Position numbers and translations under genes: made by a program. Below, piece after piece: positions 5,937 through 6,358 of a stretch of DNA of 43,551 nt (position 1 is the stretch's first letter; every line of letters begins with the position of its first letter). The notes under the pieces were generated by a model. That model was given only the letters and a program-made list of their open reading frames with translations, had not been told where the DNA came from and did not search any database. This DNA comes from a virus (Duplodnaviria; Heunggongvirae; Uroviricota; Caudoviricetes): the IMG/VR virus record IMGVR_UViG_2718217869_000004; one strand, given 5' to 3'.

Positions 5937-6358
5937 TTACATCACCGGACAATCATCAAACTCCGCGTTCCTCGCATCATTAATGATGTAAGTAATCACC
6001 CCGAATATCGCGGGAGCAGAACCGTAACCGTCATCATCTACTGGTAGCATCTCCCTTCTCCCGCTCTCCAAATTAATCAGGTGGTGTTGAGGATGAGTCC
6101 GATATCGCTTGATCCTGAACTCCCCGTCGATTGCACATATCAGCAGTGAGCCATCGCAGGCAGTAAGTGACGCATCTACCACAAGCAGCGCCCCCAGGAA
6201 TATTCCTTCCCTGAAATGTGAACGCGATGCCCGCATGAAGTAAGTCGCTGCTGGCTGGCTGGCTGGCTGGCTGGCTGGCTGGCTGGCTGGCTGATAAGAT
6301 GCTGATCGAGTGAGATCCTCGTTTCAACGTAATCGCTGGCCGGTGAAGGGAACCCCAT
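5937..6358 (-). pseudogene. UmuD/ImpA-like (S24 LexA-type peptidase fold) gene, reading frame broken inside a (GCTG)11 tract
   Basis: N-terminal frame MGFPSPASDYVETRISLDQHLISQ(PASQ)n and C-terminal frame ...PAATYFMRASRSHFREGIFLGALLVVD...CAIDGEFRIKR... both align to UmuD but are in different frames on either side of the repeat. Confidence 0.7.
6250..6293. repeat. Perfect tetranucleotide tandem repeat (GCTG)x11 (CAGC on minus strand) inside the UmuD-like coding region
   Basis: Direct read: period-4 identity holds over 44 nt. Confidence 0.95.

Follow-up and report, generated by a model that had tools for sequence, protein, structure and literature searches.

A humD gene in an Escherichia coli prophage, encoding a relative of the SOS mutagenesis protein UmuD, is split by eleven perfect copies of the tetranucleotide CAGC, and the number of copies differs among closely related prophages. 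The prophage is IMG/VR virus record IMGVR_UViG_2718217869_000004, a stretch of 43,551 nucleotides (nt) that was analysed as a whole and is termed the window below; positions refer to it unless another locus is named. Across relatives the tract ranges from about 5 to 18 units, and with each change it toggles the reading frame of a gene whose family feeds error-prone translesion synthesis. That this frame-toggling by slippage is real we consider highly probable. As to its meaning, the account that we favour, with moderate confidence in the statement as a whole, is that a young microsatellite arose here under relaxed constraint and works, de facto, as an ON/OFF switch, switching being a by-product rather than an evolved means of regulation.

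Tandem Repeats Finder (TRF) reports one perfect array of period 4 in the gene (11.0 copies, 100% matches), and this array is the sole long simple-sequence repeat (SSR) of the 43.5-kb window. By our arithmetic, the odds that 40 successive bases each match the base four positions earlier are about 4^-40 per position, and a chance origin of the tract is therefore excluded. The tract begins 65 nt downstream of the humD ATG at 6358 and occupies codons 23–37. To predict phase-variable SSRs, a threshold of at least three units has been used where the unit is at least 3 bp long (PMC5909438). The humD tract lies within an open reading frame (ORF), has a unit of 4 nt, which is not a multiple of three, and with 11 perfect copies is above that threshold.

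The consequences for the reading frame follow directly from translation. The frame that starts at ATG 6358 encodes MGFPSPASDYVETRISLDQHLI(SQPA)3SQQRL... and stops after 60 amino acids (aa), and the core frame, ATYFMRASRSHFREGI...DDCPVM, is open from the tract through the stop codon at 5937–5939. When copy numbers from 0 to 19 were simulated, a single continuous ORF was obtained only at n = 0, 3, 6, 9, 12, 15 and 18, its length being, for example, 129, 137 and 141 aa for 3, 9 and 12 copies, respectively. The 11-copy allele of the window is thus OFF: its humD ORF is not intact, and RefSeq marks the gene as “frameshifted”. An earlier reading of the window, made from the sequence only, had described a perfect 44-nt tract of period 4 inside a UmuD-like gene, with the N- and C-terminal parts open in different frames, and had predicted that the gain of one unit (12 copies) or the loss of two (9 copies) would give one ORF of about 140 aa. 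TRF and translation agree with the first two points, and the third holds both in the simulation and in nature, where the two alleles have been found.

The (GCTG)n strand of the tract is predicted to fold into a DNA hairpin (−9.6 kcal/mol), whereas its complement does not fold (−1.6 kcal/mol). Such a hairpin would be compatible with stabilised slippage intermediates, and is only a hint in that direction. A function encoded on the opposite strand was also considered and was rejected, as no ORF or Rfam family lies across the tract.

The humD locus is found at full length in 9 of 5,426 complete E. coli genomes, and in eight of the nine the humD region outside the tract is identical. There are 11 copies in Ecol_545, C1 and AH01, 13 in CDF6, 14 in GF8, GF75 and GF161, and 9 in fEC.1, in which the ORF of 137 aa is intact. 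The ninth genome, SC476, is about 91% identical and has an interrupted, unexpanded site. Together with CP056620, the 11-copy allele is present in four complete genomes (C1, Ecol_545, AH01 and CP056620). Pattern scans add alleles of 13 copies (an IMG/VR contig) and of 9 and 8 copies (metagenome contigs); a scan of the genome contigs in a collection with one genome per species gave no match. Look-ups by three exact protein sequences (DinI, orf80 and the 99-aa core) add 5, 8 and 10 copies (several records), 13, 15 and 18 copies (the last in two records), as well as 12 copies (two perfect alleles and one with a CAAC interruption) and 14 copies with the identical CAAC interruption. The interrupted alleles consist of 6+1+7 and 4+1+7 units and so differ by two units in the 5′ sub-tract.

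Exact-sequence look-up further retrieved a 6-copy protein of 133 aa on 12 contigs and two interrupted proteins of 141 aa; for the 6-copy allele, and for one of the interrupted 12-copy alleles (P0007), protein records are the sole source. The 141-aa, 12-copy ON allele was confirmed by translation. Look-up in the protein collection gave no entry for this exact allele, although a gene with precisely its translation is called on DABVAD010000102.1 (L127); the exact-sequence index is therefore incomplete for the humD locus.

Overall, at least 10 lengths are seen on near-identical flanks. Most loci differ by 0–2 substitutions per 1.6 kb of flanking sequence, and the 14 loci with no flank substitutions at all show nine different lengths. 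Even the closest sub-lineage, which has the same IS421 insertion and the same pin allele as the window, contains alleles of 11 (four records), 12 (three records) and 10 copies (one record). Many lengths on near-identical flanks mean that the tract mutates orders of magnitude faster than its surroundings, and in whole units, which makes it a hotspot of slippage. The ON alleles have 9, 12, 15 and 18 copies, to which the 6-copy protein can be added, and the OFF alleles have 5, 8, 10, 11, 13 and 14; none has a secondary lesion. If only complete or multi-megabase assemblies are counted, the lengths are 9, 10, 11, 12 (interrupted), 13, 14, 15 and 18, and counts of 11, 13 and 18 were each seen again in independent assemblies. 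In homologous prophages the tract is therefore variable in length, in-frame alleles do exist, and its recurrence in four complete genomes shows that it is no assembly quirk of one record, the opposite in each case being what the sequence-only reading had named as its refutation.

The gene in which the tract lies is a member of the HumD family. The in-frame 9-copy allele scores 207 bits over positions 1–129 of NCBIfam model NF051876 (HumD family translesion DNA polymerase, equivalog), for which the equivalog cutoff is 120 bits, and the unexpanded homologue in strain Nissle scores 225.9 bits. The same in-frame allele falls under the cutoff on the UmuD subfamily and LexA models. It aligns with the UmuD′ structure 1UMU over the whole UmuD′ length, with an expect value (E) of 5e-19. 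Residue 2 of humD, a glycine, aligns with residue 1 of 1umu_A, which is residue 25 of full-length UmuD in 8gmt_B. In addition, the catalytic Ser60 of UmuD aligns to a histidine (ASRSHF versus ASGDSM), while the Lys97 equivalent is kept. The match to Pfam Peptidase_S24 is partial, and its score of 20.3 is under the gathering cutoff of 23.3.

Since it starts at the equivalent of Gly25 and has histidine in place of Ser60, the protein counts as a UmuD′ analogue that is already “pre-cleaved”; it is no S24 peptidase of the self-cleaving type. The RefSeq label of S24 peptidase, if taken to mean self-cleavage, was rejected on these grounds, the start lying after the cleavage site. As a family name the RefSeq label is correct but imprecise, and so is the original description of a UmuD/ImpA-like gene with an S24 fold: the gene belongs more exactly to the HumD family, and neither name should be extended to S24 self-cleavage. 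In the alignment, the (SQPA)n insert forms a clean gap between His47 and Pro48 of UmuD. Taken with the general arm/core architecture of UmuD′, this alignment places it at the junction of arm and core, where an extra linker would plausibly be tolerated.

The best-known member of the family is the HumD protein of phage P1, which, like the window's gene, lacks the GDSM motif. The unexpanded homologue is 72% identical to P1 HumD over all 129 aa, and both proteins begin at the Gly25 equivalent. P1 HumD reportedly complements UmuD′ in SOS mutagenesis, going by the title of McLenigan et al. (1999, J Bacteriol 181:7005; cited in PMC8460599 and PMC4713147), and within the family such replacement is known for P1 HumD only. 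The P1 record, too, credits it with complementation of E. coli UmuD′, and marks a LexA site adjacent to the gene (TACTGTATAAATGAACAGTA); the annotated site of P1 and the LexA-like sites of the e14-like prophage both lie upstream in a divergent arrangement. In contrast, P1 humD has no repeat at the corresponding site (ATCAGGCATCCATCAGCAACC) and is a stable, intact gene, whereas the e14-like humD has a microsatellite of 5–18 units, four private substitutions, dinI and SRAP neighbours, and the additional upstream gene orf80. The relationship with E. coli UmuD/UmuD′ (PDB 1UMU, 1AY9 and 1I4V; polymerase V complex 8GMT) includes homology over the full length of UmuD′, the Lys97 equivalent and a GFPSPAADYVE arm. 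Unlike UmuD, HumD is without the N-terminal 24 residues and the cleavage site, has histidine in place of Ser60, and is not accompanied by an adjacent umuC.

Unexpanded relatives indicate where the repeat came from. The best 80 viral-contig homologues all have intact ORFs of 129 aa that read ...LISQPAATYF... at the site and contain 1–3 CAGC units; intact 129-aa genes with 1–3 units are likewise the rule without exception in the full set of 83 unexpanded homologues compared. Of the 80, 34 have (CAGC)3 without a mismatch, and nearly all differences at the site are synonymous. The closest unexpanded relative, locus L077, is 98.5% identical and has the same dinI-box-orf80-humD-SRAP architecture. 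From these homologues and the shared architecture it follows that the tract is a lineage-specific expansion of a Ser-Gln-Pro-Ala proto-repeat; in no other lineage of the humD homologues found was the site expanded. The humD unit belongs to the (TGGC)n/(GCCA)n class, which is reportedly the commonest tetranucleotide motif class in E. coli K-12, where the longest tetranucleotide repeat has four units (PMC7015867).

The humD homologues of Salmonella phages BTP1, ST-35 and BIS08P22 match in two pieces. In BTP1 (L121 1190–1620), humD is an ordinary pseudogene with a TAC to TAA stop in ...AAT*FMR and a later deletion, neither related to any repeat; its annotation there is a hypothetical protein read from the opposite strand. 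The possibility that such two-piece matches reflect independent slippage events was rejected, as the lesions are an ordinary stop and deletion.

Whether the switch is used or merely tolerated can be approached through the substitutions that humD has accumulated. The family as a whole is under strong purifying selection, with a median pairwise ratio of nonsynonymous to synonymous rates (dN/dS) of 0.07. Between the expanded lineage and L077, dN/dS is 0.61, compared with 0.07–0.13 for the neighbouring genes (SRAP and orf80 versus L077, dinI versus L082). The private changes of the expanded lineage comprise four nonsynonymous substitutions (Q20H, I43F, Q44L and P81H) and one synonymous substitution, an excess relative to the family rate (binomial p = 0.004). 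Moreover, three of the four nonsynonymous changes are at positions invariant in 83 homologues (59 distinct proteins). This excess at invariant residues points to relaxed constraint. The fraction of ON alleles is 8 of 23 among records ascertained through DNA, or about one third, which is the random-phase expectation, and humD remnants of 37–80 aa are found in many E. coli contigs. The evidence on selection, although the numbers are small, argues against selected switching. The sequence-only reading had suggested that the tract gates an SOS-induced function; this stands in so far as the frame toggles between ON and OFF alleles, but adaptive gating is somewhat disfavoured by the one-third ON fraction, the 4:1 private changes and the single expanded lineage.

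We propose the following sequence of events. The tract would have grown from a (CAGC)3 run in a prophage HumD gene, where it specifies Ile-Ser-Gln-Pro-Ala-Ala and joins the N-terminal arm to the core. Units would be gained or lost by slipped-strand mispairing during replication, and with a unit of four nt each such change shifts the frame. Copy numbers divisible by three give full-length HumD with an extra (SQPA)k linker of 4–20 aa (ON), and all others give truncated peptides (OFF); at the 11 copies of the window, a gain of one unit or a loss of two would restore the gene. Transcription is probably controlled by LexA and would run from the divergent SOS-box region common with dinI through orf80 into humD. 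In ON cells, HumD would be made upon DNA damage and, like P1 HumD, could replace processed UmuD′ alongside host UmuC. With no umuC adjacent to it, HumD would have to borrow this partner from the host.

Several points weigh against this account. A HumD with a 4–20-aa linker and four private substitutions may be inactive. The signal of relaxed constraint consists of five substitutions, and in Fisher's test against the neighbouring genes it gives p = 0.06. Some copy numbers come from short-read assemblies, which are able to collapse or break repeats, and small counts may be affected. The tract does not change at every sampling: 14 copies are common to the sisters GF8, GF75 and GF161, and 11 copies recur in four genomes. 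Finally, the length variation is known from comparison between assemblies, and reversible switching within a clone is a prediction from it.

The main alternative to a by-product is a selected contingency locus, in which the tract is kept for its switchability. A lysogen population would then be heritably and reversibly mixed, some cells having a pre-activated UmuD′ analogue that SOS can induce and others lacking it. This would be a form of bet-hedging on induced mutagenesis and damage tolerance, in which linker length may be an added tuning knob. This is possible, but we consider it doubtful. The tract is long, almost always pure and up to 18 units, compared with the maximum of four for tetranucleotides in E. 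coli K-12 (PMC7015867), and outside the tract the ORF is undamaged in the ON alleles (9, 12, 15 and 18 copies, and the protein with 6 units that is present on 12 contigs). However, because the lineage is very young, with 0–2 single-nucleotide differences per 1.6 kb, the purity and intactness of the tract need no selection, and there is no long-term maintenance to explain. The position of the insert at the arm/core junction, a clean gap relative to UmuD′ and plausibly tolerated, also suits a contingency locus, but the excess of nonsynonymous private changes at invariant HumD positions does not, and neither does an ON fraction at the random-phase value of about one third. Precedents exist in the same CAGC unit encoding (SQPA)n in mod-like methylases of Kingella and Stenoxybacter, and in the YadA adhesin of a Pasteurellaceae metagenome-assembled genome (MAG); an SSR-switched mod gene, with a different repeat, is documented in Shiga toxin-producing E. 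coli (STEC; PMC5909438). Against them must be set the single expanded lineage, although 34 of 80 homologues carry (CAGC)3, and the decay of humD by ordinary mutations elsewhere, in BTP1 and in the remnants of 37–80 aa. The more specific proposal, that this is a true contingency locus for inducible mutability, would have the switch decide whether SOS induction delivers a pre-activated UmuD′ analogue that bypasses the delay of RecA-dependent UmuD cleavage, in a manner graded by linker length and as clonal bet-hedging; we regard it as rather unlikely.

Explanations other than a by-product or a contingency locus have, in our estimate, a small chance of being correct. It is extremely improbable that the tract or its length differences are sequencing or assembly artefacts created by assemblers or polishing. 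It is true that short-read contigs end in the tract (partial proteins P0003, P0008, P0012 and P0013; loci L116, L117 and L131), that short-read assemblies are reported to collapse simple repeats (PMC5909438) and that, by our reasoning, lengths of 6, 8, 9, 10, 14 and 15 units are near common assembler k-mer sizes. However, the 11-copy allele occurs in four complete genomes from different laboratories and hosts, the 13- and 18-copy alleles are repeated in independent multi-megabase assemblies, and all differences are exact multiples of 4 nt on identical flanks. The sub-tracts of the interrupted alleles (6+1+7 and 4+1+7) are, in addition, too short to collapse. It is also very unlikely that the phase of the DNA is irrelevant because ribosomal frameshifting, transcriptional slippage or an internal start at ATG 6236 yields a functional core. 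The core frame is indeed fully open, ATG 6236 would give a 99-aa core that gene callers report (P0002), and alleles with n mod 3 = 1 have a TTG-started ORF across tract and core. Against this, no sequence resembling a Shine-Dalgarno (SD) motif is read before ATG 6236 or TTG 6327, the repeat has neither a slippery homopolymer nor an X XXY YYZ heptamer, and cognate −1 re-pairing would appear to be impossible on CAGC repeats. Moreover, a core-only product would be without the GFPSPA(A/S)DYVE arm, which is invariant across the family.

The SSR genes of Pasteurellaceae and Neisseriaceae, such as the type III mod phasevarions with AGCC or AGTC repeats and various adhesins, are the closest parallels in mechanism. 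They likewise have a tetranucleotide within the ORF, with one ON and two OFF phases; the unit is identical by cyclic permutation (CAGC = AGCC), and lengths are comparable (8–15 units). The Kingella and Stenoxybacter tracts are inside N6_N4_Mtase genes and are translated as (SQPA)n, as in humD; that of a Pasteurellaceae MAG is inside a YadA-anchor adhesin gene. Unlike humD, these loci are many per genome, occur in host-adapted species, concern surface or epigenetic genes and have had their switching rates measured, while humD is a single locus of an E. coli prophage, concerns DNA-damage tolerance and is known here from sequence comparison. In Haemophilus influenzae, the switching rate of mod has been described as u = 2e-5 x L - 2e-4, such that mutability rises with tract length (PMC3546556). 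Within E. coli, the type III mod gene of STEC with CAGCGAC[n] (Atack et al. 2018, PMC5909438) is similar in that an SSR within the ORF makes the gene phase-variable. It differs in having a heptanucleotide unit, in being a methyltransferase gene and in having been studied by fragment-length analysis, whereas humD has a tetranucleotide in a UmuD′-like gene and was studied through sequence. Tracts of (CAGC/GCTG) with 8–11 units are also present in Erwiniaceae, namely Pantoea sp. 1.19, Mixta sp. Marseille-Q2659 and Ca. Pantoea persica (L196, L197, L198 and L202). The tract of Ca. Pantoea persica is at the 5′ end of a 385-aa ORF resembling a membrane protein, and one Mixta genome has two tracts. 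Such tracts are candidates for SSR switches that have been overlooked in other Enterobacterales.

Textbooks associate E. coli phase variation with invertible DNA and Dam methylation, and not with microsatellites. Our search of the literature found no paper that connected HumD or UmuD with an SSR or with phase variation, and no tetranucleotide switch in an E. coli prophage. In the literature searched, the UmuD′-like gene class is therefore new for tetranucleotide switching, while the mechanism itself is of the classical contingency-locus type. Every expanded allele examined in RefSeq, including the in-frame 9-copy allele (L005 3001–3530), is given as a frameshifted pseudogene (“frameshifted S24 family peptidase”) with a span that reaches into orf80. 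The RefSeq homologue in Nissle (L009 2999–3445) is 148 aa long, with a TTG start over the LexA box, whereas the conserved start is the ATG of MGFPSPA. The frameshift labels probably stem from a reference model that is over-extended upstream, and such labelling would hide the polymorphism from protein-based surveys.

The consequences depend on whether the ON alleles are active. If they are, isogenic lysogens would differ stochastically and heritably in SOS-induced mutagenesis, which would bear on the evolution of resistance under DNA-damaging antibiotics. If they are inactive, the locus would still show cleanly, in nature and in an enterobacterium proficient in mismatch repair, how a run of codons containing (CAGC)3 gives birth to a microsatellite, and the tract would be usable as a typing marker.

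The prophage itself is readily placed. The window is 100% identical to positions 2417216–2460766 of E. coli C1 (NZ_CP010116.1), in reverse complement. It is an e14-like prophage at icd, present in full, and carries intE/xisE and ymfL/R/Q, genes for a head of HK97 type and for a contractile tail, and the pin invertase. At its accessory end, the order of genes in the window is an HNH endonuclease, a hypothetical gene, a SRAP/YedK-like gene split by IS421, humD (−), orf80 (−), a 75-bp gap, dinI (+) and pin. The features around the tract are collected in the table.

Table. Features in and around humD, in window coordinates.
Feature	Position	Strand	Basis
Terminator-like stem-loop followed by a T-run, just 3′ of the humD stop; not above shuffle expectation	5910..5929	-	consensus scan only
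SRAP (YedK-like) 3′ fragment, convergent with and abutting humD	5451..5936	+	Pfam SRAP, E 6.7e-39; RefSeq annotation
humD 3′ segment: UmuD′-like globular core ATYFMRAS...DDCPVM and stop 5937–5939, out of frame with the ATG at 11 copies	5937..6249	-	ORF list; partial Pfam match; UmuD′ alignment
ORF truly open from the ATG: 60-aa product of arm, (SQPA)3 and 25 out-of-frame residues	6176..6358	-	translation
(CAGC)11 tetranucleotide tract, read as (GCTG)11 from the + strand; translated as (SQPA)n when in frame with humD	6250..6293	-	TRF
humD 5′ segment: ATG 6358, codons MGFPSPASDYVETRISLDQHLI, the UmuD′ N-terminal arm from UmuD Gly25	6294..6358	-	translation; 1umu_A alignment (residues 1–23); NCBIfam
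SD-like GGAGG, 9 nt upstream of the humD ATG	6368..6372	-	sequence reading
orf80, 80 aa, phage family of function not assigned	6361..6603	-	PHROG phrog_3893, E 1.3e-36, full length
Two LexA-box-like palindromes with CTG-N10-CAG cores at 6621–6636 and 6645–6660, in the 75-bp divergent region between orf80-humD and dinI	6619..6662	.	pattern search
dinI-like gene, divergent from the same SOS-box region	6678..6920	+	Pfam DinI, E 1.6e-20; PHROG “RecA filament binding protein DinI”

The LexA-like boxes of this region are conserved. The main box, TACTGGATGGATA(T/C)ACAGT(A/G), is upstream of humD in 80 of 80 homologous viral loci, at a distance of about 80 nt where humD follows directly and of about 320 nt where orf80 intervenes. 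The statement of the sequence-only reading that the gene sits behind an SOS box is thus supported as regards motif and conservation, and P1 humD has an annotated LexA site, but it needs to be qualified: orf80 comes first after the boxes, and humD follows it in a leftward operon of two genes that is divergent from dinI. The orf80 stop codon, TAG at 6361–6363, is 2 nt ahead of the humD ATG, a spacing which suggests that the two genes are tightly (translationally) coupled. About half of the homologous loci have orf80 in the interval from the LexA box to humD, and the gene is absent from the Nissle/GDSC2BY4G-type arrangement. The exact orf80 protein occurs in 390 index blocks of the public protein collection and the exact DinI protein in 738, and a megablast search of the phage collection matched only the orf80 part, in phage Ayreon. 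RefSeq leaves orf80 unannotated and calls a + strand pseudogene fragment there instead.

On the other side of humD, the SRAP gene is split by IS421, an insertion sequence of the IS4 family, into a 5′ fragment (3919–4113) and a 3′ fragment (5451–5936), with the transposase at 4167–5279. The same gene is intact (222 aa) in AH01, CDF6, fEC.1 and GF8, and the insertion therefore marks the window's own sub-lineage (C1, Ecol_545, CP056620 and others).

Other parts of the prophage also showed features of interest. The segment by pin that contains the tail-fibre and tail-fibre-assembly genes (7049–9108) is inverted in L129–L131 relative to L123–L128 among the closest relatives, and the presence of both orientations indicates that this lineage has an active Pin switch. 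As called ORF lengths differed, the tail-fibre-assembly gene was considered as another variable locus, which was rejected: the sequences are identical or inverted, and the length differences come from gene-calling. At 35833–35896, a 15-bp unit is repeated 4.3 times (or a 30-bp unit 2.1 times) inside a replication-type gene with a helix-turn-helix (35264–36205); these repeats are iteron-like and may form the replication origin of the prophage, as in lambda O. Beside the IS200-family tnpA at the left end of the window is a match to Rfam STnc490, an Hfq-binding small RNA (469–592, −; 146 bits, gathering score 56). Finally, iss, which encodes the Bor-like increased serum survival lipoprotein, adjoins the lysis cassette (27766–28059, +), and its presence indicates a virulence-associated lysogen.

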